Assembly: GCA_002321305.1 (NCBI GenBank)
Contig: DCMF01000098.1
Span: forward strand, 28,976 to 92,975
From: Verrucomicrobia bacterium UBA1629
GTDB lineage: Bacteria > Verrucomicrobiota > Kiritimatiellia > RFP12 > UBA1067
Length of the DNA: 64,000 nt
Direction of reading: 5' to 3'
A model generated the notes under the pieces. The model was not told the DNA's origin. It searched no databases and worked only from the letters and a program-made list of their open reading frames with translations. Of this stretch, positions 1 through 37,185 are shown piece by piece (positions within the stretch are counted from its first letter, which is position 1; each line of letters opens with the position of its first letter). A program made the position numbers and the translations under genes.

Positions 1-475
1 AGCCGGGCGAGCGCAGGACGGCGTTCGTCGGCAGCGCCGCGCCCGTCAGCTCGACTTCCGTCACGAGCCGCCGCATCGCGGCGACCTCCGGCACGAGCGT
101 CAGCTTCCAGCCGCCGTCCGGGAGCGCCGTCTCGCGAATCGCGAAGACGCCGTCGAACGCCGTGGCCTTCCCCGCGGCAAACGCATCCGTCGCCGCCCGG
201 ATCTCCGCATAGTGAGGCAGCTCGTCCAGCGACTTCTCCCGCCGCCCGTCCTCGTCCACGAAGACCATCGCGTTCGTCGTCATCGTGACGGACGACGCGA
301 ACGGCTCGCGCACCTCCCAGACGATGCCCTCGCCCGCCTTGCAGCGGACGACGCCGGACGACACGAGCGCGCGATCCGAACCGTCGAGCCGCCGCTCCAT
401 CGTCCAGGTCGCCGATGCGTCGAGCGCCGCCTGCAGCGCCGCGACAGCCGACGACGCCAAGAGAACAGAAACAAG
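1..475 (-). CDS. Hypothetical protein, partial: the ORF runs off the window start. An ATG lies at about 400, with possible TTG starts at about 460-475. It could be a LolA-like or other accessory protein of the adjacent lipid cluster, but the function is unassigned.
   Basis: I translated the minus strand of 1-400 by hand and found no stop. The product begins MERRLDGSDRALVSSGVVRCKAGEGIVWEVREPF...DGVFAIRETALPDGGWKLTLVPEV. An in-frame stop lies at 479-481. This ORF is not in the supplied track because it is truncated by the window edge. Confidence 0.4.
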
Positions 476-573
476 ACTCACCTTTTCGCCTCCCTCATAT
501 CTCACCCCTCACGACTCATATCCCATCCCTCATCTCTCACGACTCATCCCTCATATCCCATCCCTCGCCGCCA
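476..573. repeat. Family C heptamer minisatellite in inverted orientation. It overlaps the last codons and stop of the adenylation/dehydratase gene and the intergenic region.
   Basis: ctcaccttttcgcctccctcatatctcacccctcacgactcatatcccatccctcatctctcacgactcatccctcatatcccatccctc. Confidence 0.7.
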
Positions 574-1990: not shown

Positions 1991-2282
1991 TCGTCACGGC
2001 GAGGTGTGCCGACAGGAAGACGACCCACGCGACCGTGACCTTTCGGCAGTAGGCGACGCCCCGCGCGTCCAGCGGCTCGCCCATCCGCCGCGCGAAGCAC
2101 TCCACAAGCGGCGTGCGGAACAGCGAGACGGCGAACCCGGCAAGGGCGACCGCGACGACGACCGCCGGATACAGCCGGAACCAGACGTTCGCCTTCAGGA
2201 AATAAAGCAGCCAGACGAGGGCGACCGCACCCACAAGGCGAAAAGCCGTTCGCGCGAGCCGCCCATTCATCGCGCCGCTCAC
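1869..2282 (-). CDS. Small integral membrane protein with four predicted TM helices (APE-cluster ApeG-like position).
   Basis: 137-aa ORF with hydrophobic segments VGAVALVWLLYFL, LYPAVVVAVALAGFAV, VTVAWVVFLSAHLAVTIATVF and LAYVLLGAMFAG. The GTG start overlaps the TGA stop of the upstream ACP gene. Confidence 0.5.
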   Translation of the reverse strand: MSGAMNGRLARTAFRLVGAVALVWLLYFLKANVWFRLYPAVVVAVALAGFAVSLFRTPLVECFARRMGEPLDARGVAYCRKVTVAWVVFLSAHLAVTIATVFASRTAWALYNGCLAYVLLGAMFAGEWLVRRRVRRV

Positions 2283-2539
2283 TTCGCCTGCTCGGCCGCG
2301 AGCTTCACGATGACGTCGGCGACGTCGCCGAGCGTGCGGATCGCCTTGAAGTCCTCGGCCTTGACCTTGAGGCCCGTCTGCTGCTGCAGGCGCACGACGA
2401 GATCGACCGCATCGATCGAATCGAGGTCAAGGTCCTCGAACAGCTTCGCCTCGGGCACGAGCTTCGCCCGATCCAGCTCGAACTCCGAGACCAGGACGTC
2501 CGCAATCGCCGCCAGCACTTCCTCTTTCGTCTTCATCAC
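2279..2539 (-). CDS. Acyl carrier protein (cluster-specific ACP).
   Basis: 86 aa with the phosphopantetheine attachment motif LDLDSIDAVDLV. Confidence 0.8.
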   Translation of the reverse strand: MMKTKEEVLAAIADVLVSEFELDRAKLVPEAKLFEDLDLDSIDAVDLVVRLQQQTGLKVKAEDFKAIRTLGDVADVIVKLAAEQAK

Positions 2540-2541
2540 CG

Positions 2542-2820
2542 TCAGTCCTCCAATGTCTCGCCGAGATTCGCCGCGATAAAATCCGCAAGCGACGCGATCG
2601 ACTTGAAATGCACCTTGTTCTCGGCCGAATTCGCCTTGAACTTCACCTGAAACCTCTTGCGCAACGCCGCGCCGATCTCCAGGGCGTCAATCGAGTCGAG
2701 GCCGACGCCCTCGCCGAACAGCGGCGCCCCCGCCGGCAAGTCCGCCGCCGTGAGGCCGTCGACCTCCACGCTCGCGAGAATCACCTGCCGAATCTCCTCT
2801 TCCAAATCCGCTCTTTTCAT
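2542..2820 (-). CDS. Acyl carrier protein, a second cluster-specific ACP. The start is at MKRADLEE, 92 aa.
   Basis: Motif GLDSIDALEIGAAL. The track ORF is extended upstream with Arg/Ser-rich junk. ATG is at 2820 by codon arithmetic. Confidence 0.75.
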   Translation of the reverse strand: MKRADLEEEIRQVILASVEVDGLTAADLPAGAPLFGEGVGLDSIDALEIGAALRKRFQVKFKANSAENKVHFKSIASLADFIAANLGETLED

Positions 2821-2851
2821 GGCGCGTATTATATCATATAATGTTCCGCCT
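2821..2851. promoter_or_regulatory. 31-bp divergent promoter region with TATAAT boxes on both strands placed about 7-10 nt from each ATG, suggesting leaderless transcripts. It contains the GGCGCGTATTATA motif that is also found at the htpG start.
   Basis: ggcgcgtattatatcatataatgttccgcctATG on plus. The reverse strand reads tatgatataatacgcgccATG. Confidence 0.4.
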
Positions 2852-3547
2852 ATGCCGAACCAGATACTCGTCCTGCCGGCCTTCGAGCCGAGTCCCCGGC
2901 TGCCGCAGCTCGTGCGCGCGCTTTCGGACGCCTTTGCCGCCGTCGTCGTCGTGGACGACGGGTCGCGGCAGTCCGCCGCCACCTTCGACGAAACCGCCGC
3001 CCTGCCGGGCGTCCGCCTGCTCCGCCACGCGGCAAACCGCGGCAAGGGCGCCGCGCTCAAGACCGCATTCGCCGAAGTCCGCCGCGCGTTCCCGGACGCG
3101 ACGGGCGTCGTGACGGCCGATGCGGACGGCCAGCACCTGCCGGAGGACATCCGCCGCGTCTCTGCCGCGTCGGCCGCGCACCCGGACCGCGTGACGCTCG
3201 GCGTGCGGTCGTTCGGCGGACGCGACGTGCCCTTCCGCAGCCGCCTCGGCAACCTCTGGACGTGCGGCGAGTTCTTCCTGCTCACGGGCACGTGGATCCG
3301 CGACACGCAGACGGGGCTGCGCGGCATCCCGCGCGCGCTGCTGCCGCGCTTCGCCGCGCTCGCGGGCGAACGCTACGACTACGAGGCGCGGATGCTCGTC
3401 GCGGCCGTGAAGCTGCCGCAGCCGCCCGTGCAGGTCCCGATCACGACCGTCTACGAGAACGGCAACGGCACGAGCCACTACCGTCCGCTCGCCGACACGT
3501 TCAGCACCCAGGCGGCGCTTCTCCGCGCCGCGTTCGGCCGCTTCTAG
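2852..3547 (+). CDS. Family 2 glycosyltransferase (DPM1 / ApeJ-like). It is the only plus-strand gene in the window.
   Basis: MPNQILVLPAFEP...VVVVDDGS...ANRGKGAALKTAF...TADADGQH. Start at Met66 of track ORF 2657..3547. Confidence 0.8.
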   Translation: MPNQILVLPAFEPSPRLPQLVRALSDAFAAVVVVDDGSRQSAATFDETAALPGVRLLRHAANRGKGAALKTAFAEVRRAFPDATGVVTADADGQHLPEDIRRVSAASAAHPDRVTLGVRSFGGRDVPFRSRLGNLWTCGEFFLLTGTWIRDTQTGLRGIPRALLPRFAALAGERYDYEARMLVAAVKLPQPPVQVPITTVYENGNGTSHYRPLADTFSTQAALLRAAFGRF

Positions 3548-3555
3548 GCGCCGCG

Positions 3556-4575
3556 TCAGATCACCGTCAGCAAGTCGTTGCGGTAAAGCGCGCGGATCGC
3601 ATCGCAGTCGAGCGTGTGCCCCGCGCGATAGCTGACGACCGTGCCGACGAAGCGGTGCGCGCCCGTCAGGGCCAAGGCCGCCATCAGGTCGAGCGTCGCC
3701 CGGTGCCAGACAGGCTCCAGGAACTTCTCGCCGACCGGGAAGCGAGGCTCCGTGTAGTAGCGCCCCTTCCCGTGGATGAGGATGTTGCGCTCGTTGTAGC
3801 CGAGGTTGCGCGTCGAGGCGAAGAGCCGCCCCACCGTCTTCGCAAGGATGTACTGCCGCCGCGTCGCGTTCGTCCGCGCCAGCGCGGCATAGCGGAACGT
3901 CTCCGGCGTCACGTCGAAGAGGATGCGCTGGTCGCCGATCACGGTGTTCCACGAGATGCCGCAGTCGATGCGCAGATTCCGCTCGCCATCCGCCGCCGGG
4001 AGGAACAGGAGGAAGTCGCCGCGGCTGCCGCCGAAGGCGACCGGCTCCTTCACCGTCACGCACGTCGCCGGCGCGTCCGTCTCGCGGATGCCCGCGTGCT
4101 CCACCGCCTTGACGAGCGGCAGGGACGATTGGTCGAAGAGCGGCGGGTCGCCGGAATTGACCTTCAAGAGCACGTCGTCGATGCCCAGCCCCAGCTTGAG
4201 CGCGATGATGTGCTCGACCATGCGCAGGTAGTTGTGGGGCGAGCCCGACCGCAGGACGAGGTTCTGCGCGCTCGTCCAGAGGTTCGCGATGTCGACCTGC
4301 GTGTCGAGCTGCTCCGGCTGGTCCATCCGGCGGATCCACCAGCCCGGCTTTTCGCTCGGCGCGAACGTCAGCGTCTGCTTGTGGCTGCCCTGGAACGTGC
4401 CGATGCCCGCGACCGGGGCCTCGCCCGCGAGCGTGCGCCGCGCCGACGGGAACGGCGAGACGCGTCTTTCCGCCAGCCGCGTCTCGTCAATCGGCAGCTC
4501 CCTAAAAAGTCGGTACGCCGCATCGATCGATGCGGCGCTCCCGAACACAATCTTGCCGATTGGATATTCCGGCAT
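3556..4575 (-). CDS. lpxC: UDP-3-O-acyl-N-acetylglucosamine deacetylase (LpxC family).
   Basis: VEHIIALKLGLGIDDVLLKVNSGDPPLFDQSSLPLVKAVEHAGI aligns with E. coli LpxC [44 protein letters not shown]. The zinc-ligand region WHRATLD is present. Confidence 0.75.
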   Translation of the reverse strand: MPEYPIGKIVFGSAASIDAAYRLFRELPIDETRLAERRVSPFPSARRTLAGEAPVAGIGTFQGSHKQTLTFAPSEKPGWWIRRMDQPEQLDTQVDIANLWTSAQNLVLRSGSPHNYLRMVEHIIALKLGLGIDDVLLKVNSGDPPLFDQSSLPLVKAVEHAGIRETDAPATCVTVKEPVAFGGSRGDFLLFLPAADGERNLRIDCGISWNTVIGDQRILFDVTPETFRYAALARTNATRRQYILAKTVGRLFASTRNLGYNERNILIHGKGRYYTEPRFPVGEKFLEPVWHRATLDLMAALALTGAHRFVGTVVSYRAGHTLDCDAIRALYRNDLLTVI

Positions 4576-4841
4576 TACTTCTCCGGCGCGGAACCGTCGT
4601 CGCCATAGCCCTTCGACTTCAGGTATTCGACGACCTTGCCGACCGTGGTGAGCTTCTCAGCGTCCTCTTCCGGAATCGCCGCGCCAAACTCCTCTTCAAA
4701 GGCCATGATGAGCTCGACGGAATCAAGCGAATCGGCCCCCAGGTCGTCGATGAACGACGCCTCCGTGGTGACCTGTTCGGCGTTCACTCCGAGCTGCTCA
4801 ACGATGATGTCTTTGACGCGATCTTCAAGCTTTCCTGCCAT
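4575..4841 (-). CDS. acpP: Acyl carrier protein AcpP (housekeeping).
   Basis: [24 protein letters not shown] canonical AcpP motif, with an AAGGAG RBS upstream. Confidence 0.9.
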
Positions 4842-4897
4842 AGTGTTTTCAACTCCTTGTTTCTTGTTGATGTTCGTATTATACTACATTTTGAGGG
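4842..4897 (-). promoter_or_regulatory. Sigma70-like acpP promoter (TTGCAC ... 18 nt ... TATAAT) followed by an AAGGAG RBS.
   Basis: Minus strand reads ttgcacgtgaccctcaaaatgtagTATAATacgaacatcaacaagaaacAAGGAGttgaaaacactATG. Confidence 0.4.
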
Positions 4898-6223
4898 TCA
4901 CGTGCAAGAGGGTGCCGAGAAAGTCGCGGCAAGGCGCCGAGCGAGGACGGGAAGTCCCGGGTCGCGGGCCCCGCATGTCACGAAGCATCCGAAGGCGCCG
5001 CGATGCGCCGCGCACCAGTCGAACGCCGCGTCGAGATCGGCGACCAGCCGTACGCGCGCGCCCGCCGCCGCGTCCGCGCGCGTCACCGCCGCAACGAGCG
5101 CGTCCGAGTTGATCGAGCGGTCGGTCGTTCCGCCCGCGTCGTAGACAGGCAGCAGCAGCAGCCGGTCCTGCGGACGAACCGTCTCCGCGAACATCGCCGC
5201 GAGCGCGTCCCTCATCTTCCTGAGCGGCGCGTAGCCATGCGGCCGCCAGATCGCGCAGACGCCCTGCGGATACCGCTCCGCCAGCGTCGTCCACATCGCC
5301 TTCAGCTTTTCCGGGTTGTGCGCGTAGTCGTCGTAGACGGCAGGTTCGGGAGGTTTGGAAGGTTTGGGAGGTTTGGAAGGTTCGGGAGGTTGGGGAGGTT
5401 GGGGAGGTTGGGGTGGGGTGATGAGCTGAAGGCGGCGCTCGACGCCACGGAAGGTCTTCATCGCGGCCACCGCATCGGACAGCTTCACGCCCAGAGCGAC
5501 CGCCATGCGCACCGCCAACTCGGCATTCTGCCGATTGTGCCGCCCCGGTACCGGCACTTCCAAACCTTCCAAACCTCCCGAACCTTCCAAACCGCCAAAC
5601 ACTTTCCTCCCATCCACCACCGGACCCTTGCAGCCTTTCACGAACGCATCGAAGACCGCATCCATCTCCTCCTTCGAGTAGTGGTCGGCGGAGGCGTTCG
5701 TGACAATGGCCGCATAGGGGCTGAAGGCGACGAGCGACTTGTCGCTCTCGTCCACCTCGGCGACGGCGAAGGCTCCGCGCCCGAAGCGCACCGCGCCCTC
5801 CCAGCCGGGCACGTTCGCGCCGTTCACGCACATCGGGTCCAGCCCACAGGACGCGAGGACGTGTCCGAGCATCGCCGTCACCGTCGACTTGCCGCAAGTG
5901 CCGACGACGGCGACGAGGCGATAGTCCCGAAGGGCGCGCGCAAGGGCCTTGGCGCGGTGCGTGACGGGAATGCCGAGCGCCTGCGCCTTTCGCAGCCCGG
6001 CGTTCGTCGGCTCAATGGCCGTCGAGACGATCACCTCGTCCGTCGCCGCATCGACGCCGCTGCCGTCGTCGGGAAAGACCTTCACGCCGAGCGATTCGAG
6101 AAACCGGACGTTCGGCGTGTCGCGTGTGCGATCCGCGCCCGTCACCCCGTCGCCCGACCGCACGAGCGCCGTCGCGAGCGCGCTCATGCCCACGCCGCCA
6201 ATGCCAATCAGATGCCGCTTCAT
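4898..6223 (-). CDS. murC: UDP-N-acetylmuramate--L-alanine ligase MurC. It carries two low-complexity in-frame insertions (GLEGSGGLEGLE and PPQPPQPPQPPEPSKPPKPSKPPEP).
   Basis: N-terminal IGIGGVGMSALA, Mur ligase motif VGTCGKST, and GRHNRQNAELAV. Confidence 0.85.
   Translation of the reverse strand: MKRHLIGIGGVGMSALATALVRSGDGVTGADRTRDTPNVRFLESLGVKVFPDDGSGVDAATDEVIVSTAIEPTNAGLRKAQALGIPVTHRAKALARALRDYRLVAVVGTCGKSTVTAMLGHVLASCGLDPMCVNGANVPGWEGAVRFGRGAFAVAEVDESDKSLVAFSPYAAIVTNASADHYSKEEMDAVFDAFVKGCKGPVVDGRKVFGGLEGSGGLEGLEVPVPGRHNRQNAELAVRMAVALGVKLSDAVAAMKTFRGVERRLQLITPPQPPQPPQPPEPSKPPKPSKPPEPAVYDDYAHNPEKLKAMWTTLAERYPQGVCAIWRPHGYAPLRKMRDALAAMFAETVRPQDRLLLLPVYDAGGTTDRSINSDALVAAVTRADAAAGARVRLVADLDAAFDWCAAHRGAFGCFVTCGARDPGLPVLARRLAATFSAPSCT
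5340..5418. repeat. Family A 9-bp tandem array (GGAGGTTTG/GAAGGTTTG units) inside murC. It encodes a PPQ/PPE/PSK tract.
   Basis: ggaggtttggaaggtttgggaggtttggaaggttcgggaggttggggaggttggggaggttgggg. Confidence 0.8.
5558..5600. repeat. Family A array in inverted orientation (CCAAACCTTCC units) inside murC. It encodes GGLEGSGGLEGLE.
   Basis: ccaaaccttccaaacctcccgaaccttccaaaccgccaaac is the reverse complement of the 5340-5418 array. Confidence 0.8.
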
Positions 6224-6262
6224 CCGCGTGTCAAGACGGCGTTCCCGTGTGCGCCGCCCCCG

Positions 6263-8845
6263 TTACAGGCTTCTCGGCAGCTCCTCCAGCGAGTAGCACT
6301 CGATCGTGTCGCCGACCTGGAAGCCCTCGTAGTTCGCGAAGCACACGCCGCATTCCTGCTGGCCCGTCACTTCCTTCACCTCGTCCTTGAAGTGGCGCAG
6401 CGTCTGCACCTTGCCGTCCCACACCTGCGCCTTGCTGCGGAGGATGCGGAAGCGCTCCTTGGCGACGAGCTTGCCGTCGAGCATCTGCGAGCCGGCGATC
6501 TTGCCGAGCTTGCCGATGTCGTAGATCGCCTTGATCTCGGCGTGGCCGAGGACGACTTCCTTGTACTCCGGCGGCAGCAGGTCGAGCATGCAGTTCTTGA
6601 CGTGATCCAGGAGCTCGTAGATGATGCGGAAGGAGTTGATCCGGACGCCGTCGTGGCGCGCCTGCTGCTGGACGCCCGAGTCGTTGCCGATGTCGAAGCC
6701 GACGAGGATCGCCTTGCCGGCGGCGGCGGACTTGACGTCCGTCAGCGAGACGTTGCCCGTGCCCGTGCCGATGATGTTCAAGGCCACCTTCTCGGACTTG
6801 ATCTCGTTCAGCGCCTGCACGATCGCCTCCAGCGAACCCTGCGTGTCGGACTTCACGATCACGTTGAGCTCGCGCTTGCCCTCGGCGGCCATCGCGCTCA
6901 TGAGCGCGTCGAGCGTCGCGGCCTTCGAGGTCGAGAGGGCCTCCTCCTTCTTCTCCTGCGCGGTCTGCTCGGCGAGCGTGCGCGCGCGCTTCTCGTCCAG
7001 CATGACGCGGAACTCGCTGCCGGCCTCCGGCACGCCCGACAGGCCCGTGCACTTCACCGGCGTCGCCGGCGGGGCCTCCTTGATGCGGCGGCCGTGGTCG
7101 TCGATGAGCGCGCGCACCTTGCCGAAATGCTCGCCGATGAGGATCGCGTCCCCGACCTTGAGCGTGCCGCCCGTGACGAGCAGCGTCGCGCACGGGCCAA
7201 GGCCCTGCTGCAGCTCGGACTCGATCACGAAGCCGTTCGCGCGGCGGTTCGGGTTCGCCTGGAGCTCCAGCACCTCCGCCTGCACGAGGATGTTCTCCAG
7301 GAGCGCGTCCACGCCGAGGCCCGTCACGCCCGAGACGGGGCAGCAGATGATGTCGCCGCCCCAGTCCTCCGGCGTCAGGCCCCGCTTCTGGAGCTGCTGC
7401 TTGACGCGATCGACGTTCGCCGTCGGCTTGTCGGCCTTCGTGATCGCGACCATGATCTGCACGCCCGTCTGGCGGCAGACCTTGATGCACTCCTCGGTCT
7501 GCGGCATGATGCCGTCGTCGGCCGCCACGATGAGGACGGCGATGTCGGTGATCTGCGCGCCGCGCGCACGCATCGCGCTGAACGCGGCGTGTCCGGGCGT
7601 GTCGAGGAACGTGATCTTCTTGCCCGCGATCTCGACCTGGTAGGCGGAGATCTGCTGGGTGATGCCGCCGGCCTCGCCCGCCGCGACATGCTCCTTGCGG
7701 ATGTAGTCCATCAGCGTCGTCTTGCCGTGGTCGACGTGGCCGAGGAACGTGACGACCGGCGCGCGCGGCTTCAGCGTCTCGGGCGGATCCTCCGGAATGA
7801 GGTCGTCCGCGTCGATCGCCTTCAGGACGGGCTTCGCCGCCGCCTTGTCGCGGGCGTGCTCGATCGTCACCTTGAAGCCGTACTTCTCCGCGACCTTCGT
7901 CGCGACGTCCGGCTCGACGCGCTGGTTGATGGACGCGAGGACCTTCAGCCCCATCAGGTCGGCGATGAGGCGGTTCGGCTTGATGTTGAGCTTCGCCGCG
8001 AGATCCTTCACGACCACCGCGCCGCGGATCGAGATCTCCTTGTTCGCCTCGTCCACGGAAATGCGGCTGCCCTGCTCCATCACCTTCGGCGCCACCACGC
8101 GCGGCGCGCCCTTGTCGAGGCCCTTGCCGCCGTCGCGGTCCTTCCGGCCCCTGCCGCCGTCACGCCCGGCGACGCCCACGGAAATCGTCGGCTTCGGCGG
8201 CTTCGGCTTCGGGGCGGCCGCGACGGAAATCGAGATCGTCGCCGCCGGCCGCGCGTGCTGAAGCGGACGGAACCCGGCCGCCGTCAGCCCCGTCTTCGCG
8301 GCGGAGATCGTCGGAATGACCTTCGGCTTCACGCCCGGCGCCATGCGGATCTTGGGCGTTGAGGGTTGAGTGGTGAGAGGTGAGGGATGAGAAGTGAGGG
8401 GTGAGGGATGAGAAGTGAGGGGTGAGGGGGAAGGGGTTGGAGAGGGCGGCGCCTCTCGCGTCCCTTCCGTCCCTCTCGTCACGGCAGCGGCAGCCGCCGC
8501 CGGAGCCGCCGTCGCCGCGGCCTTGAACGCCTTGCCTTCCGCCGCGTCCTTCGCGATCTTCAGGTGTTCGGCGAGCTTCGCCTTCTGCGCGGCGAAGAAC
8601 GCGGCGTTCAGGTCGGCCACGCGCTTCGCCTTGGCGGCGCGCGCCGCCGCGACGTCGGCCTTCGGCGCGTTCGCGAGCGCCAGCCTGAGCGCGGCGAGTT
8701 CGCCGTCCTCGACCGCGCTGATCGCGCTTGTGACCTCGACGCCGGCCTTTTCGGCCACGCGCAGCACCTCGGCGCTCGTGACGCCCGCCTCCTTGGCAAT
8801 TTCACAGACTCTCATGGGTTCAGCCTTCCTCTCCCTCGTGCGCAT
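6263..8845 (-). CDS. infB: Translation initiation factor IF-2. The start is possibly at Met11 (8815). It contains an in-frame heptad repeat insertion, SHPSPLT x3.
   Basis: N-terminal MRVCEIAKEAGVTSAEVLRV and G-domain VVTFLGHVDHGKTTLMDYIR...DTPGHAAF. Confidence 0.95.
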   Translation of the reverse strand: MRTRERKAEPMRVCEIAKEAGVTSAEVLRVAEKAGVEVTSAISAVEDGELAALRLALANAPKADVAAARAAKAKRVADLNAAFFAAQKAKLAEHLKIAKDAAEGKAFKAAATAAPAAAAAAVTRGTEGTREAPPSPTPSPSPLTSHPSPLTSHPSPLTTQPSTPKIRMAPGVKPKVIPTISAAKTGLTAAGFRPLQHARPAATISISVAAAPKPKPPKPTISVGVAGRDGGRGRKDRDGGKGLDKGAPRVVAPKVMEQGSRISVDEANKEISIRGAVVVKDLAAKLNIKPNRLIADLMGLKVLASINQRVEPDVATKVAEKYGFKVTIEHARDKAAAKPVLKAIDADDLIPEDPPETLKPRAPVVTFLGHVDHGKTTLMDYIRKEHVAAGEAGGITQQISAYQVEIAGKKITFLDTPGHAAFSAMRARGAQITDIAVLIVAADDGIMPQTEECIKVCRQTGVQIMVAITKADKPTANVDRVKQQLQKRGLTPEDWGGDIICCPVSGVTGLGVDALLENILVQAEVLELQANPNRRANGFVIESELQQGLGPCATLLVTGGTLKVGDAILIGEHFGKVRALIDDHGRRIKEAPPATPVKCTGLSGVPEAGSEFRVMLDEKRARTLAEQTAQEKKEEALSTSKAATLDALMSAMAAEGKRELNVIVKSDTQGSLEAIVQALNEIKSEKVALNIIGTGTGNVSLTDVKSAAAGKAILVGFDIGNDSGVQQQARHDGVRINSFRIIYELLDHVKNCMLDLLPPEYKEVVLGHAEIKAIYDIGKLGKIAGSQMLDGKLVAKERFRILRSKAQVWDGKVQTLRHFKDEVKEVTGQQECGVCFANYEGFQVGDTIECYSLEELPRSL
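8355..8445. repeat. Family C heptamer minisatellite in frame in infB. 3 x 7 bp gives a 7-aa period, producing SPLTSHP repeats.
   Basis: ggttgagtggtgagaggtgagggatgagaagtgaggggtgagggatgagaagtgaggggtgagggggaaggggttgg. Confidence 0.8.
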
Positions 8846-10106
8846 CCGCCGTCAGCGCCGCCACGGCCTTCGCCGCCGCGTAGACGCCCTTCGCCGTCAC
8901 CTCGTCGAGGCCCGTCGCCGCGATGAAGCTCGCCTCGTCCTCCTCCGCGATGCCGTCCACCGTGAGGTAGCCCGCGTCGGCCATTTGCGTCGCGACCGCC
9001 GTCGAGACGGAGAACATCTCGGCGAGTTCCTTGATGGCTGCGGCCTTCTGGTCCTCGAACGAGGCCGTCGCCATCGACTTCTTCACCTCGACGTGCCAGC
9101 CCGTGAGCTTCGTCGCGAGGCGAACGTTCTGGCCGCGCTTGCCGATCGCGAGCGAATACTGGTCTGCCGCCGCAACGCAGCGCACCGTGTTCGGCACCGA
9201 CGGGTCGATCTCGATGGACTCCAGCTTCGCCGGCGCGAGCGCCTGGGCGACGTACTGGCGGATGTCCTCGTTCCAGCGCACGATGTCGATCTTCTCGCCG
9301 GAAAGCTCGTTGACGATCGACCGCACGCGGCTGCCGCGCTGGCCGACGCACGCGCCGACCGGATCGACCGACTCGTTCGACGAGCGCACCGCGAGCTTCG
9401 CCCGGTAGCCGGGGTCGCGGCTCACGCCCATGATCTCCACGACGCCGTCGGCGATCTCGCTCACCTCCAGGCGGAACAGCGCCTCGACGAACTTGCCGTC
9501 GGCGCGCGACAGCGTCACGGACGGCCCCTTCGCGTCGGGATCGACGCGCTTGATGATCGCGCGGATCGGGTCGCCGACCTGGTAGTCCTCCGTCGGGATG
9601 CGCTCCTTGGCCGGCAGCACCATCTCGGTCTTGCCGACCGTCACGTAGGTGTCGCGGTGGGAGACTGCGGAGACCGTGCCGGACACGATGTCGCCGATGC
9701 GGTCGCGGTATTCGCTGAAGGTGTTCGTGCGCTCGGCCTCGCGGATCTTCAGCATGATCATCTGCCGCGACATCTGCGCCGCGATGCGGCCGAGGCGCGA
9801 CGCCGGCATCTCGACCTCGATCGTCTCGCCCACCGCCACGGGATTGCCGTGGTTGCAGCGCGCCGCGCGCGCCGTCGAGATGAAGCCGACGCCCGTGTCT
9901 TCGTCGGACACGACAAGCGTGTCGTAGACGTGGAATGAAAGATCCTTGCGGTCAATGGCGACACGCAAGTCGTTCGTCACGGTTGAATTCTTCCGGGCCG
10001 CCTGCGCAATCGCCTGCTCGATCGCCGTCAGGACGATCTCGCGGCTCACGCCACGCTCGCTTTCGATATGCTGCACGACTGCGAGCAGCTGACTGTTCAT
10101 CGCCAT
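8820..10106 (-). CDS. nusA: Transcription termination/antitermination factor NusA.
   Basis: 428 aa with NusA N-terminal, S1 and KH regions and an AAGGAG RBS. It sits in the conserved nusA-infB operon. Confidence 0.95.
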   Translation of the reverse strand: MAMNSQLLAVVQHIESERGVSREIVLTAIEQAIAQAARKNSTVTNDLRVAIDRKDLSFHVYDTLVVSDEDTGVGFISTARAARCNHGNPVAVGETIEVEMPASRLGRIAAQMSRQMIMLKIREAERTNTFSEYRDRIGDIVSGTVSAVSHRDTYVTVGKTEMVLPAKERIPTEDYQVGDPIRAIIKRVDPDAKGPSVTLSRADGKFVEALFRLEVSEIADGVVEIMGVSRDPGYRAKLAVRSSNESVDPVGACVGQRGSRVRSIVNELSGEKIDIVRWNEDIRQYVAQALAPAKLESIEIDPSVPNTVRCVAAADQYSLAIGKRGQNVRLATKLTGWHVEVKKSMATASFEDQKAAAIKELAEMFSVSTAVATQMADAGYLTVDGIAEEDEASFIAATGLDEVTAKGVYAAAKAVAALTADAHEGEEG

Positions 10107-10124
10107 CTTTCACTCCTTATTTCT

Positions 10125-10195
10125 GTCAAAAATCAAAACGCGCCCTTCGGTTCGACCCGCTGGATCGCCGAAAAACAATGCGTAGAATACATTAT
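10125..10195 (-). promoter_or_regulatory. Candidate nusA-infB promoter (TTGACA, 17 nt, TATTCT), with a second TTGACA nearer the RBS.
   Basis: Minus strand reads TTGACAttttcggccagataatgTATTCTacgcattg...ttgatttTTGACAgaaatAAGGAGtgaaagATG. Confidence 0.35.
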
Positions 10196-10222
10196 CTGGC
10201 CGAAAATGTCAAATACGCCCGG

Positions 10223-10879
10223 TCATCTTCCAAGCCCCAGTTCCATCTGCGCGACGGGGGCGAAGCTGCGGCGGTGTTCGGGACATGGCCCCAGGCGCGC
10301 GAGCGCGGCGAGGTGCGCCGACGTCGGGTAGCCCTTGTGCCGCGCGAACCCGTAGCCGGGGTAGGCGCGCTCCAGCCGCTCGCAGTCCGCGTCACGCGCC
10401 GTCTTCGCGAGAATCGACGCTGCCGCGATGAACAGCGACTGCGCGTCGCCCTTGACGAGGCTCGTCGAGCGCGGCAGCGACGCGACGGGCAGGCCGTCCA
10501 CGAGAATCGAGACCGTCGCCGCCGCGAGACCGTCCGCGCCGAGCTTCCGCGCGACCGCATCGGCCGCCCGGCGCATCGCGAGGTGCGTCGCGCGCAGGAT
10601 GTTGAGGCGGTCGATCTCCGCCGGACTCGCCGAGGCGACCGCCCATGTGCAGTCCGGCGTCGCCCTGATGACCGCCGCGAGCGCTTCGCGCCGCTTCGCG
10701 GAGAGCTTCTTCGAGTCGTTGACGGGCGACCAGGAGCCCGCGAGCAGCTCCTCCGCCCGCGCGAGCGGCACGGACACGGCGGCGGCGTAGACCCCTCCCG
10801 CGAGCGGTCCGCGCCCCGCCTCGTCGATCCCCATCACGGGATCGCCCGCCGCCAGCTCGTGCTTGAGTGTAATGGACAT
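10223..10879 (-). CDS. rnhB: Ribonuclease HII.
   Basis: Motifs GIDEAGRGPLAGGV and DSKKLS, 218 aa. Confidence 0.9.
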   Translation of the reverse strand: MSITLKHELAAGDPVMGIDEAGRGPLAGGVYAAAVSVPLARAEELLAGSWSPVNDSKKLSAKRREALAAVIRATPDCTWAVASASPAEIDRLNILRATHLAMRRAADAVARKLGADGLAAATVSILVDGLPVASLPRSTSLVKGDAQSLFIAAASILAKTARDADCERLERAYPGYGFARHKGYPTSAHLAALARLGPCPEHRRSFAPVAQMELGLGR

Positions 10880-10901
10880 GACAAGTCAATCGGCCTTCTT
10901 C

Positions 10902-12116
10902 TCATCTGACGTCCGCCAGAGAGGCCAACTGTCTCTGACGCCGTGCGCGAAAGGCGCCGTTTCTCGCGTTGTCGCGCTTCGTGTAGCGAATGGACCGCTC
11001 GATGTCATCGGAGATGTCGATCGCTCTCTGCTGTGCGGTACGCTTCCAGCCGCCCTGCAGATAGTCGATCAGCGCCTTGCCCAAGACTTCGCCGAAAACG
11101 GTCGGAACGGCATTCCCGACCTGCTGATACTGATTGGCGACCGTGCCCGCGAATTCCCATTCGGGCGGGAATCCCTGCAAGCCAGCGACTTCGCGCAACG
11201 TCAGGCGCCGCAACGTGCCGTCCGGCAGACGGATCCAGTCCTGACTCGACGATCCCGTCACCGTCCGGGCCGGCTTCGACTGATCTGCGATGAACATCCC
11301 CTGCCGATAGCCCCAATGCCCGTTCGGACGCGTCGCCTCTGCAACGCCCGGACTCTTCAGGCCCTTTCCGTCAGGAATGCCAGAAAGAACTGCGCGCGCT
11401 TTTTCCGTCGGCAAGATCCAATGGGATTTGTCCTTGTCTGCCGACGTCTTCAGATAGTCGCCAAGCGTTGTCCACCGCGCGCGTCGCTCCGTCTCAAACA
11501 GGGAGTCAACAGGATTTCCCGTGTGCGTTGGCGAGGGAATTTCGGGGGCGCCCGCAATCGAAGAGCCGAGAACGAAGCACCGAACACGCCGTTGCGGCGA
11601 TCCGTAATCCGCCGAATTGAGAAGACTTGCACGGCAACTGTAGCCAAGTTCGGCGAACATCTTGAGCAGCCCTTTCAAGACCTCGCCCGGTTCATCTGAA
11701 TTTCCCTTCGCCGTCACAAGTCCACGAACATTCTCAAAGAGAAAGACCTTTGGCCTGATTTCCTTGAGCAGGCGCAGATACTCATAGACAAGCGCGCCGC
11801 GCTCGTCGAAAATCGAGTCCTGCTTTCCCGCACTCGAAAACGCCTGGCATGGCGGCCCTCCCACGAGGCAGTCAACCGTCTTTCGCCGTCCCAGCATGTC
11901 CTGTGCGGAGATCTGCCGAATGTCCCCCTGCATGACATTCGCATGCTGAAAATAGGTTCGATCCGTTCCGGGAATGACTATTCGCCGTTCCTTCATGTTG
12001 CGCACGGTCTCGCAATACGACGGATGTATCTCAAGCGTCGAAAGGACGTCAAAACCGGCCCGCTCAATGCCGATGTCAAGCCCCCCTGCCCCCGTGAAGA
12101 TGCTGACAGCCGTCAT
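10902..12116 (-). CDS. DNA (cytosine-5)-methyltransferase of a type II restriction-modification (R-M) system.
   Basis: Motif I FTGAGGLDIG, motif IV GGPPCQAFS, and motif VI ENV. GC is about 55%, against about 70% in the flanks. Confidence 0.9.
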   Translation of the reverse strand: MTAVSIFTGAGGLDIGIERAGFDVLSTLEIHPSYCETVRNMKERRIVIPGTDRTYFQHANVMQGDIRQISAQDMLGRRKTVDCLVGGPPCQAFSSAGKQDSIFDERGALVYEYLRLLKEIRPKVFLFENVRGLVTAKGNSDEPGEVLKGLLKMFAELGYSCRASLLNSADYGSPQRRVRCFVLGSSIAGAPEIPSPTHTGNPVDSLFETERRARWTTLGDYLKTSADKDKSHWILPTEKARAVLSGIPDGKGLKSPGVAEATRPNGHWGYRQGMFIADQSKPARTVTGSSSQDWIRLPDGTLRRLTLREVAGLQGFPPEWEFAGTVANQYQQVGNAVPTVFGEVLGKALIDYLQGGWKRTAQQRAIDISDDIERSIRYTKRDNARNGAFRARRQRQLASLADVR

Positions 12117-12117
12117 T

Positions 12118-13047
12118 TCAATGCGTCCTCAAATAGCGCGTCAATGCCGCAATGTCATATTCCCAAAAGACAATGCCCCCGGCGTTGATCAAGGACTCAT
12201 ACTCTTTCTGCGGCACAAACCCCGACAAGACGACAGCGCAGACGATGCTTTCGCCAAACCGCTCCTTCCAGTCGTCAAACTTCTCGCGGCATTCCTTGAC
12301 ACGCTTAAATGCATCAATGCGAACGCCGATTGCCTTGGCTTCGATCAAGAGCAGTTTTCCGCTTCCCTTCAGGCGAACGGCCAGATCGGCCTTTTGGACA
12401 TTTCGACCCCGGACACGGCATTCGCGGCTATACTGCCCGACAAGCAAATCGTCGATTGACGTGACGATTCGCCGCGTCTGCACCGAAACATAACCCGCCT
12501 TGACAATGCCCTTTACGGCCGTCGTCTCCTGGAGTTCCTTCCGCCAGTTCCGGAATGCCGTTGCCGAATTCTGGTTGGCTATCAGCGAACACGTCCAGCG
12601 CTTCGCGTAACTTTCAGCGAGCGAAAGCTCATGGCCCTGCAAAGTCTCCTGAAGCCACAGAAACCGCTGCGAGTCCAAGTAGCGGTTGACCATGCGGCAG
12701 ATTTCGGGCGCAACGGCCGACAGCGCCTTCCCCTGCCGCCCTCGATCGACAATGTTTTCCTCGAAGTCAGCCGTCGAAACAAGCCCCACCAGCTGTCCGA
12801 GTTTCATCTGGCTCAGGACCGGGAGCATGCAATAGCGAAGGACCTTGATGATTCGGCTGTCTTCGAGGAGCATACGCGGGGTCACTTGTTCGCGAAACCC
12901 GTTCGTCTTCCGAAAGGCGATGTCATACAGCGAATCACATCGCGTCTCCGAATCCGAATAGAGCTTTTTCGACATCTCGAAAAAGATGTTCGTCTCGAAG
13001 CGTTCTGACTTTCTCAGCACGTCGGCGATGCGATCCGCTTTCTTCAT
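12118..13047 (-). CDS. Putative type II restriction endonuclease, the partner of the upstream C5-methyltransferase.
   Basis: 309 aa, 1 nt downstream of the MTase stop. Lowest GC in the window, about 50%. A PD-(D/E)xK-like arrangement is present (SIDDLL ... LLLIEAKAIG). Family is not recognised. Confidence 0.55.
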   Translation of the reverse strand: MKKADRIADVLRKSERFETNIFFEMSKKLYSDSETRCDSLYDIAFRKTNGFREQVTPRMLLEDSRIIKVLRYCMLPVLSQMKLGQLVGLVSTADFEENIVDRGRQGKALSAVAPEICRMVNRYLDSQRFLWLQETLQGHELSLAESYAKRWTCSLIANQNSATAFRNWRKELQETTAVKGIVKAGYVSVQTRRIVTSIDDLLVGQYSRECRVRGRNVQKADLAVRLKGSGKLLLIEAKAIGVRIDAFKRVKECREKFDDWKERFGESIVCAVVLSGFVPQKEYESLINAGGIVFWEYDIAALTRYLRTH

Positions 13048-13057
13048 GACGACACGC

Positions 13058-14977
13058 TTACTTGAGCATCAGGTTCGCGAGCAGCTTCGAGAAGCGCGCG
13101 CCGTCCGTGACGGGCGAGCCCTCGGCGATGAGAGCCGAGTCGTAGAGGAGCGTCACGGCGTCCTTCAGCGCGTCGCCCTCCAGCCCCTTCACCTTCGCGA
13201 TGAGCGGATGGTTCGGGTTCACCTCCAGGATGCGCTTGTCGTCCGGCACCTCGTTCTTCATCGCGCGCATCATGCGCACCATCGACGGCGGCAGCGCGTG
13301 CTCCTGCGCGACGAGGCAGCACGGCGAGTCGGTGAGGCGCGTCGAGACGCGCACGTCCGAGACGGACGCGGCCAGCTCCTTCTTGACGGCCTCAAGGAAC
13401 GGCTTCAGGTCGGCGGACGCCTTCTCGTTCGCCGCCTTCTCGGCCTTTTGCTCGTCTTCGCTGCCGAAGGAGACGTCGCCCTTCGCGATGTCGACGAGCT
13501 TCTTGCCGTCGAACTCGCGCAGCGACTCGGTCAGGTAGTCGTCCACGGGATCGCAGAAGAGCAGCACGTCGCACCCGTGCTTGCGCGCGGCCTCCAGGAC
13601 GGGCGACTTGCGCGCGTCCTCCTCGCGCTCGGCGCAGACGTAGTAGATGTCCTTCTGCGTCGCGGGCATGTCCTTCACGTAGTCTTCGAGGAAGATGCGC
13701 TTGCCGGCCTCGGTGCGCGCCGTCGGGTACTTCAGGAGCCTCTTGATGCGGTCGGCGTGATCCCAGTCGACGTGCACACCCTCCTTGACGACCGTGCCGA
13801 ACGCCGACCAGAACTCGTCGTAGCGCTTCGCGTCCTTCTTCTTCAGGTCCTCGAGCGCCGAGAGCACCTTCGCCGTCACGGCGTCCTTGATCTTCTTGAT
13901 GACCGCGTCGTCCTGCAGCATCTCGCGCGAGACGTTGAGCGGCAGGTCGGCGGAATCGACGACGCCCTTCACGAACCGGAGCCAGCTCGGCAGCAGCATC
14001 TCGACGTCGTCGCCGATGAAGACGTTGCGCACGTAGAGCGAGAGGCCGCGCTTCTGGTTCGGCATGAAGAGCTCCATCGTCGCCTTCTTCGGCAGGAAGA
14101 GGAGCGCCTTGAACTCGACCGCGCCCTCGCCGGAGAACGGGATAGTCTCGAACGGCGCCTCCCAGTCGTGCGTCAGGTGCTTGTAGAACTCGTCGTACTC
14201 CTCCTGCTTGACGTCCTTCTTCGCGCGCTTCCAGAGCGCGACCATCGTGTTGAGGGGCTTCGCCTCGCGCTCCTCGCGGCGCTTGCGGTCCTCCTCGCTG
14301 CGCTTCTTCTCGTCGTCCGTCTTGGCCTCCGGCTCGACGACGTTCAGCTCCTTGAAGTAGATCGGGTAGGCGATGAAGTCGGAGTACTTCTTCACGAGGT
14401 CCGACACGCGCCAGTAGTCGAGGTATTCGAGCTGGTCGTCGCGCAGGTGCAGCGTGATGGACGTGCCGGGGAAGTCGCGCGCGCCGTCGGAGATCGTGTA
14501 GGAGCCGGACATGTCGGACTCCCACCTGAACGGCGTCTCGGTGCCGCGCTTGAGCGTCTCGACCGTCACCTTGTCCGCCACCATGAACGCCGCGTAGAAG
14601 CCGACGCCGAACTGTCCGATCAGCTCGGGCAGGGACTCGCCGCCCTTCTCCTTGAGCATCTCGCGGAACTTCTTCGTGCCGGAGCTCGCGATCGTGCCGA
14701 GGTTCTGCTCCAGCTCGGCCGCGTCCATGCCCGTGCCGTTGTCGGAGATCATGAGCGTCTTCGCGGCCTTGTCCGCCGCGATCTGGATCTTCCACTCCGG
14801 GTTGTCCGCGACGAGCGACTTGTCCGTCAGCGAGAGGAACTTCGCGCGGTCGATCGCGTCGGAGGCGTTGGAAATGAGCTCGCGCAGGAAGATCTCCTTC
14901 TTCGAGTAGAGCGAATTGACGACGAGATCGAGCATTTCGGCGATCTCGGCCTTGAACTGATTGGTCTTCTTTTCCAT
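13058..14977 (-). CDS. htpG: Molecular chaperone HtpG (Hsp90).
   Basis: ELISNASDAIDRAKF and GQFGVGFYAAFMVADKV, 639 aa. The start is immediately preceded by tataatacgcgccgct. Confidence 0.95.
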   Translation of the reverse strand: MEKKTNQFKAEIAEMLDLVVNSLYSKKEIFLRELISNASDAIDRAKFLSLTDKSLVADNPEWKIQIAADKAAKTLMISDNGTGMDAAELEQNLGTIASSGTKKFREMLKEKGGESLPELIGQFGVGFYAAFMVADKVTVETLKRGTETPFRWESDMSGSYTISDGARDFPGTSITLHLRDDQLEYLDYWRVSDLVKKYSDFIAYPIYFKELNVVEPEAKTDDEKKRSEEDRKRREEREAKPLNTMVALWKRAKKDVKQEEYDEFYKHLTHDWEAPFETIPFSGEGAVEFKALLFLPKKATMELFMPNQKRGLSLYVRNVFIGDDVEMLLPSWLRFVKGVVDSADLPLNVSREMLQDDAVIKKIKDAVTAKVLSALEDLKKKDAKRYDEFWSAFGTVVKEGVHVDWDHADRIKRLLKYPTARTEAGKRIFLEDYVKDMPATQKDIYYVCAEREEDARKSPVLEAARKHGCDVLLFCDPVDDYLTESLREFDGKKLVDIAKGDVSFGSEDEQKAEKAANEKASADLKPFLEAVKKELAASVSDVRVSTRLTDSPCCLVAQEHALPPSMVRMMRAMKNEVPDDKRILEVNPNHPLIAKVKGLEGDALKDAVTLLYDSALIAEGSPVTDGARFSKLLANLMLK

Positions 14978-15066
14978 AGCGGCGCGTATTATAGCACAAA
15001 AACGGCCTTTGGGCGTCCCGCCATCGACCGCGCGCCCCGTGCCCGAGAACGGAACGTCCCTGCGGC

Positions 15067-15702
15067 TCAGCCGATGTAGACGAGGTCGTTCGGCGGGGGC
15101 GCGACAAACGTGACGCGCCTCTTCGTCAGCGGATGCAGGAACGACAGCTCGACCGCGTGCAGGAGCGTCCGCGCCGGCTTGCGGCGCAGGTGCCGGTCGC
15201 GCGCCGCGTCACCGTAGAGCGGGTCGCCGACAATCGGACAGCCCAGCTCCTTCGCCGCGTGAATGCGAATCTGGTGCGTCCGCCCCGTCTCGATGTCGAA
15301 GCGCACGAGCGCGAGCGCACCCTGCCGCCCCAGCACCTCGTAGCGCGAGACGGCGCGCTGACGATCGATGGGGCGCGTCAGCGTACCCTTCGTCGCGAGG
15401 CCATGCCGCCAGTGGCAGACGGCGAGGTACGTCTTGCGGACGTCGCGATGCGCCTCGAACTGGCGGCGCAAGTCGAGATACGCCGCCTGCGTCCGCGCGA
15501 AGACCATCACGCCGCTCGTGTCGATGTCGAGGCGGTGGACGACGCCCGGACGCTCCCGCGAGCCGACGGACGCCATCTCCGGGAAGCGGCGCACAAGCTC
15601 GTCCGTCAGGGCGCCCGTCTCGTGCCCGGGCGCCGGGTGGACGATCTGGCCCGCCGGCTTGTCAACGACGACGAACGCCGCGTCCGCGCAGAGAATCCTC
15701 AT
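15067..15702 (-). CDS. Pseudouridine synthase, RluA family.
   Basis: HRLDIDTSGVMVFA catalytic-Asp motif, 211 aa. Confidence 0.8.
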   Translation of the reverse strand: MRILCADAAFVVVDKPAGQIVHPAPGHETGALTDELVRRFPEMASVGSRERPGVVHRLDIDTSGVMVFARTQAAYLDLRRQFEAHRDVRKTYLAVCHWRHGLATKGTLTRPIDRQRAVSRYEVLGRQGALALVRFDIETGRTHQIRIHAAKELGCPIVGDPLYGDAARDRHLRRKPARTLLHAVELSFLHPLTKRRVTFVAPPPNDLVYIG

Positions 15703-17377: not shown

Positions 17378-17397
17378 GATGTTGGTTCTCTTGAGGT

Positions 17398-17472: not shown

Positions 17473-17477
17473 GCCTT

Positions 17478-22470: not shown

Positions 22471-25734
<3,264 letters not shown>

Positions 25735-29003: not shown

Positions 29004-29125
29004 GATGAGATGTGAGAGGTGAGGGATGAGATGTGAGAAGTGAGGGATGAGGGATGGGAGGTGAGAAGTGAGGGATGAGAGGTGGGAGGTGAGAAGTGAG
29101 GGGTGGGAGGTGAGGGATGGGGTGT
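29004..29125. repeat. Family C heptamer minisatellite (GTGAGGG / ATGAGAA / GTGGGAG units), intergenic between rho and coaE.
   Basis: gatgagatgtgagaggtgagggatgagatgtgagaagtgagggatgagggatgggaggtgagaagtgagggatgagaggtgggaggtgagaagtgaggggtgggaggtgagggatgggg. Confidence 0.8.
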
Positions 29126-37169: not shown

Positions 37170-37185
37170 AGGATTGAAGCCCTTG

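Follow-up and report, generated by a model that had tools for sequence, protein, structure and literature searches.

According to the survey of Mrázek, Guo and Shah (2007), in the parts relayed by two later papers (PMC4679880, PMC4692102), heptamers are the over-represented and most abundant class of long simple-sequence repeat (SSR) in prokaryotes and are credited to polymerase slippage. Long SSRs, with units of 5-11 nt, are described in the same excerpts as enriched in larger, GC-rich genomes of non-pathogens, and units that are multiples of a triplet as favored in coding DNA (PMC4679880, PMC4692102). Here, we describe a heptamer array of the class TGAGRRR inside infB, the gene for translation initiation factor 2 (IF2), in a 64,000-nt stretch of contig DCMF01000098.1 from Verrucomicrobia bacterium UBA1629, hereafter the window. 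The array departs from the survey pattern in that a non-triplet unit persists in coding DNA through a higher-order period of three units. It probably represents a slippage-prone TGAGRRR heptanucleotide SSR that is tolerated in a permissive linker, with selection passing only frame-preserving changes. As such, it is a known sort of bacterial simple-sequence repeat and not a new system.

Dispersed G-rich heptamer arrays were described by Rehm et al. (2015) as GGGAATC in Xanthomonas and GGGGAYT in Nostoc, mostly intergenic and variable in copy number (PMC4692102). Their G-rich strand lies preferentially either antisense within 50 bp upstream of an open reading frame (ORF) or sense and overlapping a stop codon, and a minority of these heptamers is intragenic on the non-coding strand (PMC4692102). 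Two further arrays of the window, one in the coaE-rho spacer (from 29006) and one at 491, obey these placement rules, and the infB array corresponds to the intragenic, non-coding-strand case. Runs that could form G-quadruplexes (G4s), judged by motif, are present in these arrays too. Unlike the Rehm heptamers, the arrays consist of mixed TGAGRRR variants instead of one consensus and belong to another phylum, Kiritimatiellia; the infB array, moreover, lies deep in an essential gene, is translated and shows in-frame strain polymorphism.

TAACTGA heptamers of marine Beggiatoaceae and cyanobacteria (MacGregor 2015) have stops in all frames in the forward direction and are translatable in reverse (PMC4679880). 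Their arrays fill the stretch immediately before start codons, where a Shine-Dalgarno sequence is often missing, and have been proposed as translational regulators (PMC4679880). TGAGRRR resembles them in having stops in every frame of one orientation, whereas TAACTGA is a different, AT-rich unit, is essentially intergenic and has no described in-frame coding variable-number tandem repeat (VNTR). A literature search for tandem TGAGGGA/TGAGGAG strings found no relevant paper. Short tandemly repeated repetitive (STRR) heptamers of the cyanobacteria Calothrix and Nostoc (CCCCAGT and others) form dispersed tandem families, mainly intergenic, that are used as fingerprinting targets; like the TGAGRRR arrays they are dispersed tandem heptanucleotides, while units and taxon differ.

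The window has a GC content of 65.7%, and its ORFs with a coding-type GC content at third codon positions (GC3) lie nearly all on the minus strand. Across the infB array the sole long ORF of this type (GC3 0.94) is the minus-strand frame 6263-8845, whose product is identified as IF2 by the Pfam domains IF2_N, GTP_EFTU (354-510), EF-G_D2 and IF-2; IF2_N is matched in two stretches, best at aa 269-315. Translation likely starts at the Met at 8815 (MRVCEIAKE...), just past the nusA stop, which is also where all homologues begin. The closest named relative is a Kiritimatiellia metagenome-assembled genome, and related contigs derive from gut/rumen-type metagenomes.

Run on the window, Tandem Repeats Finder (TRF) reports 8360-8437 at period 7 (11.1 copies, 73% matches, score 79) and scores period 21 higher (110; 3.3 copies, 91% matches). 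On the plus strand, 8355-8445 reads as the units TGAGGGT, TGAGTGG, TGAGAGG, TGAGGGA, TGAGAAG, TGAGGGG, TGAGGGA, TGAGAAG, TGAGGGG, TGAGGGG and so on. Its minus-strand translation is TPSPSPLTSHPSPLTSHPSPLTTQPS (IF2 aa 127-152), read as PSPLTSH-PSPLTSH-PSPLTTQ. Both the period of 7/21 and this translation bear out an earlier, first-pass annotation of the stretch, which had reported an in-frame heptamer repeat in IF2 giving a 7-residue peptide repeat. The same annotation held that the 7-bp units come in multiples so that 21 bp equal seven codons; the duplication unit is indeed 21 bp, but the array itself, at 78 bp or 11.1 units, is no whole multiple of three heptamers. The quantities that are multiples of three are its net length and its recent duplication unit. 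With 11.1 head-to-tail copies of a 7-nt unit, the array falls within the definition of a long-unit SSR (units of 5-11 nt, at least 3-4 copies), and a DNA-level heptamer repeat family with non-coding copies is supported over a protein-level repeat. Coordinates of the features are collected in Table 1.

Table 1. Features of the infB locus and related heptamer arrays, in window coordinates.
Feature	Position	Strand	Description and basis
infB (IF2, 850 aa), intact	6263..8815	-	directly downstream of nusA (8820-10106); ORFs, Pfam, homologues, genes called in L001/L206
Heptamer array in infB	8360..8437	-	TGAGRRR on plus strand, C-rich YYYCTCA in sense; ~11 heptamers; recent duplication unit 21 bp; TRF, pattern search, translation, lag analysis
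21-bp unit, sense CCTCACTTCTCATCCCTCACC	8379..8399	-	present in window, missing in L001; placement ambiguous by register; blastn and DNA alignment
Hypervariable IF2 linker, predicted disordered, aa 95-153	8357..8533	-	from N-terminal helical domain to conserved IRMAPGVKPK; alignment and AlphaFold
Imperfect hairpin, sense strand	8424..8475	-	RNA folding: 18 bp, z = -2.47; heptamer run 3' of hairpin unpaired
Heptamer array, TGAGRRR class, coaE-rho spacer	29006..29114	+	TRF period 7, 15.6 copies; higher-order period 28; pattern search; comparison with L126 and L005
Heptamer array, TGAGRRR class, opposite polarity (G-rich sense)	491..566	-	higher-order period 35; TRF, pattern search, ORFs, L001 gene calls

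Inter-strain comparison of infB, proposed in the first-pass annotation as a check, revealed a difference in repeat number. Contig L001 (ENA ERZ27300220, 74 kb), aligned by blastn to window positions 1-18815 over 18,794 nt, has 0 mismatches and one 21-bp gap, and is thus one 21-bp unit shorter and otherwise identical over 18.8 kb. The gap is exactly one three-heptamer unit of the infB array and lies in repeat register, as expected of a register-matched copy-number polymorphism. The 850-aa IF2 allele is found in three contigs from at least two samples and the 843-aa allele in one contig; they come from independent assemblies, with both alleles obtained from sister samples by one megahit pipeline and the long allele also by SPAdes. 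An assembly artefact is an unlikely source of the 21-bp difference, because the 78-bp array is shorter than a typical sequencing read and the long allele occurs in several contigs and samples.

Divergence at the locus is concentrated in the linker. A third allele (L209) has an unchanged heptamer count and about five substitutions inside the 78-bp array, together with 9 bp (one unit) added in the adjacent 9-mer tract and 18 bp in an Ala-rich tract. Elsewhere in its infB, there are eight mismatches in the 3' 2,070 nt and three in the first 255 nt, and linker divergence is an order of magnitude above that of the rest of the gene. Members of the 90%-identity IF2 cluster, 97-100% identical over the C-terminal 600 aa, range in length from 838 to 877 aa, with the length change wholly in the linker, and every linker indel seen (21, 9, 18 and 42 bp) is a multiple of three. 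In relatives with an IF2 identity of 93% and 89%, the DNA at the site of the infB array shows heptamers of a degenerate CCCTCA type. At the same linker position, a sister lineage (97-99% identical over the C-terminal 600 aa of IF2) has a 42-bp minisatellite. Its alleles of two, three and four copies give proteins of 849, 863 and 877 aa (L208 1359-1482, P0126, P0129, P0133, P0134). The 14-aa repeat of that lineage was considered as a heptamer-built sequence and rejected as such, being an unrelated 42-bp minisatellite. The IF2 linker site is a general tandem-repeat hotspot irrespective of unit.

The 21-bp step was compared with the periodicity of the two arrays outside IF2. In the coding infB array the best autocorrelation lag is 21 (0.84), as against 28 in the rho-leader array (0.88; TRF period 28, 89%) and 35 in the 491 array (0.85; TRF period 35, 85%). 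Because the non-coding arrays peak at 28 and 35, 21 bp is no intrinsic slippage quantum of the repeat class, and the observation supports the three-unit step as what survives in a reading frame. Two readings of the periodicity had been offered at first pass: slippage in 21-bp units, which these lags speak against as an intrinsic property, and selection against frame disruption, with which they agree, as do the 21-bp strain indel, the linker indels of 3n and a change in coaE. In the latter case, two strains of at least 97% identity (L143 and L144) show a 14-bp difference in a TCTTCCC heptamer array together with a compensating one of 1 bp; the sum is 15 bp, each strain has an intact CoaE, and the two proteins differ by five residues. 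An indel-concentration test on pairs of at least 97% identity among 80 related rho loci gave seven unique indels, a number too small for statistics, this coaE change (14+1 bp) being the one that was informative. Period 21 as a higher-order rule for coding arrays of other phyla was dropped, those arrays being too short or too pure. Intact ORFs elsewhere hold arrays of 28-56 bp in which recognizable unit counts are often not multiples of three; the counts need not be, because degenerate edge units absorb the remainder. The proposition that a coding copy number other than a multiple of three units would imply a disrupted gene was therefore mis-specified, as only the net length has to be 3n.

The infB array falls within a linker of IF2 that has no conserved column between G94 and P154 in an alignment of 28 homologues. 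Conservation returns on either side, at AEGK... and IRMAPGVKPK... AlphaFold2, run on the IF2 homologue alignment, gives a predicted local distance difference test score (pLDDT) below 50 at aa 101-150, compared with ~90 at aa 1-92 and about 80-87 at aa 250-320. Low pLDDT, the lack of a conserved column and intact flanking Pfam domains characterize the repeat as a coding VNTR in a disordered linker. Linker length and composition vary among IF2 homologues, and the linker is kept in all relatives. Next to the heptamers lies the 9-mer tract, ACGRRAGGG in three copies (TRF 8455-8480), which encodes TRG-TEG-TRE. In the hairpin predicted here, this purine-rich tract is the partner of CCUCUC..CCCUUCC..CCCUC, the first pyrimidine-rich stretch of the linker.

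Orientation constrains where such an array can be coding. Because 7 is coprime to 3, the G-rich strand has TGA in all three frames every 21 nt, and therefore only the C-rich strand, which is stop-free and encodes Pro, Ser, Leu, Thr and His, can be coding. This constraint was overlooked at first pass, as was the clade-wide filling of permissive loops by 7-9-bp repeats described below. A scan for (TGAGRRR)x4 with one genome per species gave at least 120 loci, in Planctomycetota, Gemmatimonadota, Acidobacteriota, Bacteroidota, Verrucomicrobiota, Cyanobacteria, Myxococcota, Proteobacteria, Firmicutes and Chloroflexi. Among the matches listed, the C-rich strand is sense in 17 of 17 TGAGRRR arrays inside long ORFs with coding signal. 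Their hosts include UvrA, PheT, an ABC-F ATPase, a nonribosomal peptide synthetase adenylation domain and a decarboxylase, and the encoded peptides include SPLTPHPSPLTPH and HPSSLIPHPSS. For 7-9-mers in ORFs of the clade itself there is a trend to C-rich sense (21 against 5), on which no weight was placed, as the counts are small and include leaders and related loci.

The unit as such is not distinctive. In a viral contig collection, (TGAGRRR)x4 occurs at 65 loci, (TGGGRRR)x4 at 40, (CGAGRRR)x4 at 51 and (TAAGRRR)x4 at 83. TGAGRRR as a special pan-bacterial element was dropped, as it is present in many phyla and control units are similarly frequent. Purine-rich heptamer arrays as a whole are common, and preferred units appear to differ by genome, as in Xanthomonas and Nostoc.

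Within the window, the unit class is dispersed over three arrays. The pattern TGAGNNNTGAGNNNTGAGNNNTGAG (three TGAGNNN units followed by TGAG), with at most one mismatch, has 27 matches, all in these arrays (494-560 minus, 8353-8426 plus and 29006-29114 plus), compared with 0 matches in 100 dinucleotide-preserving shuffles of the window. This is the dispersed recurrence of a heptameric long-unit SSR, and the pattern search found no further strong TGAGRRR-class array in the 64 kb. The first-pass annotation had listed intergenic copies of the family at 29004-29125 and 476-573; both are family members, but the second is only partly intergenic, since the 491-566 array closes an AMP-binding/ApeI-like gene (551-1876), for which it supplies the last five codons and the stop, TGA. 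Downstream, a LolA_3-like gene starts with GTG (479-481), and the unit GGGAGG at the end of the array provides a Shine-Dalgarno-like site 8 nt ahead of that start. TRF gives periods of 14, 21 and 35 for this array, and its period-7 register is seen from the pattern matches. The rho-leader array takes up the 121 bp that separate the coaE stop (29125) from the rho start (29003) and adjoins the rho ATG with its G-rich strand antisense; G is absent from its sense RNA (plus-strand GC skew +1.00). Both arrays fit the Rehm-type placement bias, which at n=2 is consistent without being statistical. In ackA (acetate kinase, 40475-41788, minus), a weak run of 3-4 TGAGNCG-like units at 41440-41466 encodes STHDSRLTSR and resembles the TGAGTCG units of the 491-566 array; the likeness is marginal and possibly due to chance.

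The favored account, a slippage-prone heptanucleotide SSR under frame-preserving selection, would work in four steps. Firstly, the infB array would win and lose units by replication slippage or unequal recombination, as the repeat-register indel suggests. Secondly, with infB essential, only net changes divisible by three would persist, either as 21-bp steps or as compensated combinations; the outcome would be a higher-order period of 21 bp and a peptide repeat of seven residues, as supported by the strain comparison and by the different periods of the non-coding arrays. Thirdly, an array would be kept inside a gene only if its stop-free C-rich strand is sense, and a Pro/Ser/Leu/Thr/His composition would fit a flexible linker. 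Finally, the peptide would most likely be a neutral filler; the site holds a degenerate array, the 42-bp minisatellite or nothing in close relatives.

Several points weigh against this account. A single heptamer-array indel was seen directly at infB, which places the 21-bp rule there at n=1 plus indirect periodicity; the two non-coding arrays show no indels against L001 or L005 and do not bear out a higher mutability of the arrays in general. Slippage by itself leaves the unit class common to three loci unexplained. The CCCTCA-type heptamers persist, at the DNA level, in relatives down to ~89% IF2 identity, and a peptide resemblance in P0013 (~83% IF2 identity) points, at the protein level, to possible further persistence. 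The partial hairpin (z = -2.5) and a G4 motif at the array edge may leave room for some selected role at the nucleic-acid level.

A selected role is what the best-surviving alternative asserts for all the arrays: as cis elements, they would form G4 or triplex structures on the template strand that tune transcription, or would supply a Shine-Dalgarno-independent leader or an RNA like a Rho utilization (rut) site, especially upstream of rho. We consider this improbable, yet the placement of G-rich motifs speaks for it. Canonical G4 motifs (G3+N1-7 x4) occur in the 64-kb, 66% GC window only at 5384-5418, 8419-8446 and 29100-29122, and all three candidates lie in repeat arrays on the plus strand, opposite in sense to the gene that each overlaps or adjoins. 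Over most of the infB and rho-leader arrays the loops between G runs exceed 7 nt, G4 formation being judged by motif alone, and a scan of the whole window at Rfam gathering thresholds gave 0 matches. The placement of the arrays agrees with the bias published for G4-forming heptamers (PMC4692102). The rho-leader array is free of G on its sense strand, and array-bearing rho leaders of relatives are C-rich and G-poor in sense as well (L140 G5/C63, L135 G9/C64, L128 G12/C50) and lack the AAGGAG-type site found in array-free relatives. In E. coli, rho is autoregulated by attenuation, and the array-bearing rho leaders have a composition that would suit the loading of Rho or a leader without structure. 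In L126, however, the closest rho relative at 96% Rho identity, the coaE stop overlaps the rho ATG and leaves no spacer, and the rho-leader array is therefore dispensable. Many relatives are likewise array-free, and the 491 array has the opposite polarity. At infB the array is translated, and a rut site there would be covered by ribosomes. Units in the rho leaders of relatives (ATTCGAYC, AACCACCT, CTCCAA, CCCCTRA, CTAACCA, ACAACTA, ACTACCTA) are unconserved across lineages, and the polarity counts are small and phylogenetically non-independent.

Rickettsia palindromic elements (RPEs) were reportedly described by Ogata and colleagues in 2000 as 100-150-bp palindromes with a full-length consensus that sit in frame in housekeeping genes, where they are tolerated at permissive surface positions of the proteins. 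Like them, the infB array is repetitive DNA tolerated in frame at a permissive site of a housekeeping protein, here an unconserved, predicted disordered linker. A mobile or selfish element of the RPE type, or one akin to miniature inverted-repeat transposable elements, might thus have left its footprint at infB and the two other loci, which would account for one unit class at three unlinked loci and for the partial hairpin next to the infB array. The 8-mer modules of the window, with conserved outer ends and inverted pairs in frame in uvrA and a kpsF-like gene, lend this idea further weight. Unlike an RPE, the heptamer array has no palindrome, full-length consensus or defined ends, being made of tandem short units instead. 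All three heptamer arrays are of single polarity, an inverted-repeat search found no partner, and inspection revealed no common termini, flanks or core beyond the unit and no visible target-site duplication. Array lengths and unit orders differ, the variation is an in-register unit loss typical of slippage, and purine-rich heptamer arrays of any unit are frequent in unrelated genomes. For the heptamers this reading was rejected, as there are neither inverted partner arms nor shared flanks, and we rate its likelihood as slight.

Selection on the PSPLTSH peptide itself, as a proline-rich spacer or interaction motif of IF2 with the DNA periodicity as by-product, is less likely again. Linkers rich in Pro, Ser and Thr are common as functional spacers, and a linker of variable length is kept in all relatives. 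The units, however, are near-identical in DNA including synonymous positions (91% at period 21), which points to recent DNA duplication, and the TGAGRRR unit is also present in non-coding spacers and in both polarities. Close relatives carry unrelated sequence or another minisatellite in this region, which has no conserved column, and conservation of the PSPLTSH peptide without codon conservation was not seen across divergent lineages.

In its unit length, which is not a multiple of three, and its strain-variable copy number the infB array resembles the coding SSRs of contingency loci in host-adapted pathogens, and E. coli infB has internal starts, so that the conserved Met just downstream (IRMAPG) could in principle begin a shorter isoform. 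Phase variation of IF2 or its isoforms by frameshift, or a polymorphism made by the assembly, is nonetheless the least credible reading of all: the frame is kept in 120 of the 120 homologues listed, in further cluster members and in all three close alleles, with no frame or expression switching among the alleles seen; the change observed is 21 bp; the host, IF2, is a cytoplasmic, essential housekeeping protein and no surface, host-interaction or restriction-modification gene product; and the internal Met has no preceding Shine-Dalgarno-like sequence.

Heptamers are one part of a wider repeat pattern in the clade. In 750 kb from the 80 related rho loci, TRF counts 41 array clusters at period 7, 38 at period 8 and 39 at period 9, a density of roughly one in 6 kb, with about half of them in likely coding sequence. 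In the window, in-frame repeat modules are present in UvrA (three sites), CoaE, a Mur ligase and a KpsF-like SIS/CBS protein, and many of these modules are inverted array pairs. Orthologue loops that host such modules range from about 4-5 residues up to 70 or >100 and hold lineage-specific repeat fillers. The IF2 linker is one of the permissive sites that repeat DNA has filled again and again in this clade, and the clade-wide occurrence of in-frame 7-9-bp modules in housekeeping proteins is more unusual than the infB array itself.

The 8-bp modules are in-frame hairpins built from the unit ATTCGAYN with a higher-order period of 24. Two lie in uvrA (22471-25734, minus), at 24735-24915 and 23440-23600, and one in the KpsF-like gene (38200-39285, minus), at 38370-38515. 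The forward arm encodes NNR(I/M)VESS repeats and the complementary arm IRRFDxS, with arms of 27-41 nt that are 78-91% complementary. Outer ends GGAAATAATCGAAT...ATTCGATTATTTCC are common to all three full modules, a single arm is found at 41791-41839, and the units and terminal motif recur in the rho leader of relative L128. By analogy with the RPEs, to which the 8-mer and 9-mer inverted-pair modules of the window come closer than the heptamers do, the 8-mer modules look more like a mobile palindromic element.

The 9-bp modules pair inverted arrays of GTTTGGRAG and CTYCCAAAC. In coaE (29397-29574) they form one in-frame module in a loop that ranges from ~5 to ~70 residues. In the Mur-ligase gene (4898-6223) the arrays are in frame at 5339-5616, with arms up to 94% complementary that flank a 150-nt segment encoding the conserved GRHNxxNA...RR, which would form the loop of a potential long hairpin. 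A third UvrA insert is made of 9-mers (25191-25230, aa 169-182), and all three UvrA sites are hypervariable in L126-L205. UvrA fillers in relatives include QAPSTKH x4 (L196), TEPPHHLT x5 (L168) and SGAERNEPKARDGQTKIA repeats (L151, L152). In L108, an unrelated bacterium, UvrA carries SPLTPHPSPLTPH as an insert derived from TGAGRRR; it lies shortly before the C-x-x-C zinc-finger motif, as does UvrA site 1.

Spacers are affected as well. In L126-L205, the coaE-rho junction (0-250 nt upstream of rho) is a hotspot of repeats and ranges from spacer-free to arrays of differing units, and the array-bearing rho leaders have no Shine-Dalgarno-like site. Between the uvrA start and a HEAT-repeat gene, the 774-bp spacer (25740-26514) consists almost wholly of tandem repeats of unrelated units, namely 19-mers, 12-mers, the 13-mer AAGGCTAGAAGTT in eight copies, a 45-mer in three copies and 10-mers.

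Some other parts of the window stand apart from the repeats. Matched to L001, the stretch at ~10881-13026 (minus), between RNase HII and HSP90, holds genes for a DNA methylase and a restriction endonuclease (RE_XamI); no ORF there passes the GC3 filter, which suggests atypical composition and possible recent acquisition. Two giant minus-strand ORFs have coding-type GC3, at 41837-54535 (4,233 aa) and 54908-64000 (at least 3,031 aa, cut by the end of the window). The genes at 30125-37999 (minus) form a cluster of secretin, TSP3-like, Amuc_1100-like, PilM-like and Amuc_1102-like genes that resembles the Akkermansia type IV pilus-like locus and is consistent with a gut organism of the Planctomycetes-Verrucomicrobia-Chlamydiae (PVC) superphylum.

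One speculative extension ties the repeat classes together. An active, lineage-specific process, of which the heptamers would be one product, might seed 7-, 8- and 9-bp arrays in frame in permissive loops of essential proteins (IF2, UvrA at three sites, CoaE, Mur ligase, KpsF-like protein) and in leaders such as that of rho, some of them as hairpin modules with the ends GGAAATAATCGAAT...ATTCGATTATTTCC, and C-rich-sense leaders might act independently of a Shine-Dalgarno sequence or load Rho. We think it doubtful that this is so; if true, rumen/gut Kiritimatiellia would have, in tandem repeats, a counterpart to the RPEs of Rickettsia.

The infB array is a textbook case of a non-triplet microsatellite in an essential gene, given a disordered linker, a stop-free sense strand and selection for a net length of 3n. 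As a VNTR it provides a ready strain-typing marker for an uncultured gut Kiritimatiellia lineage. For annotation, the case advises caution, as low-complexity inserts that look odd in the housekeeping proteins of this clade are genuine. The lineage-wise refilling of loops in IF2, UvrA and CoaE by different repeat families could serve in studies of the origin of protein linkers and loops from repeat DNA.

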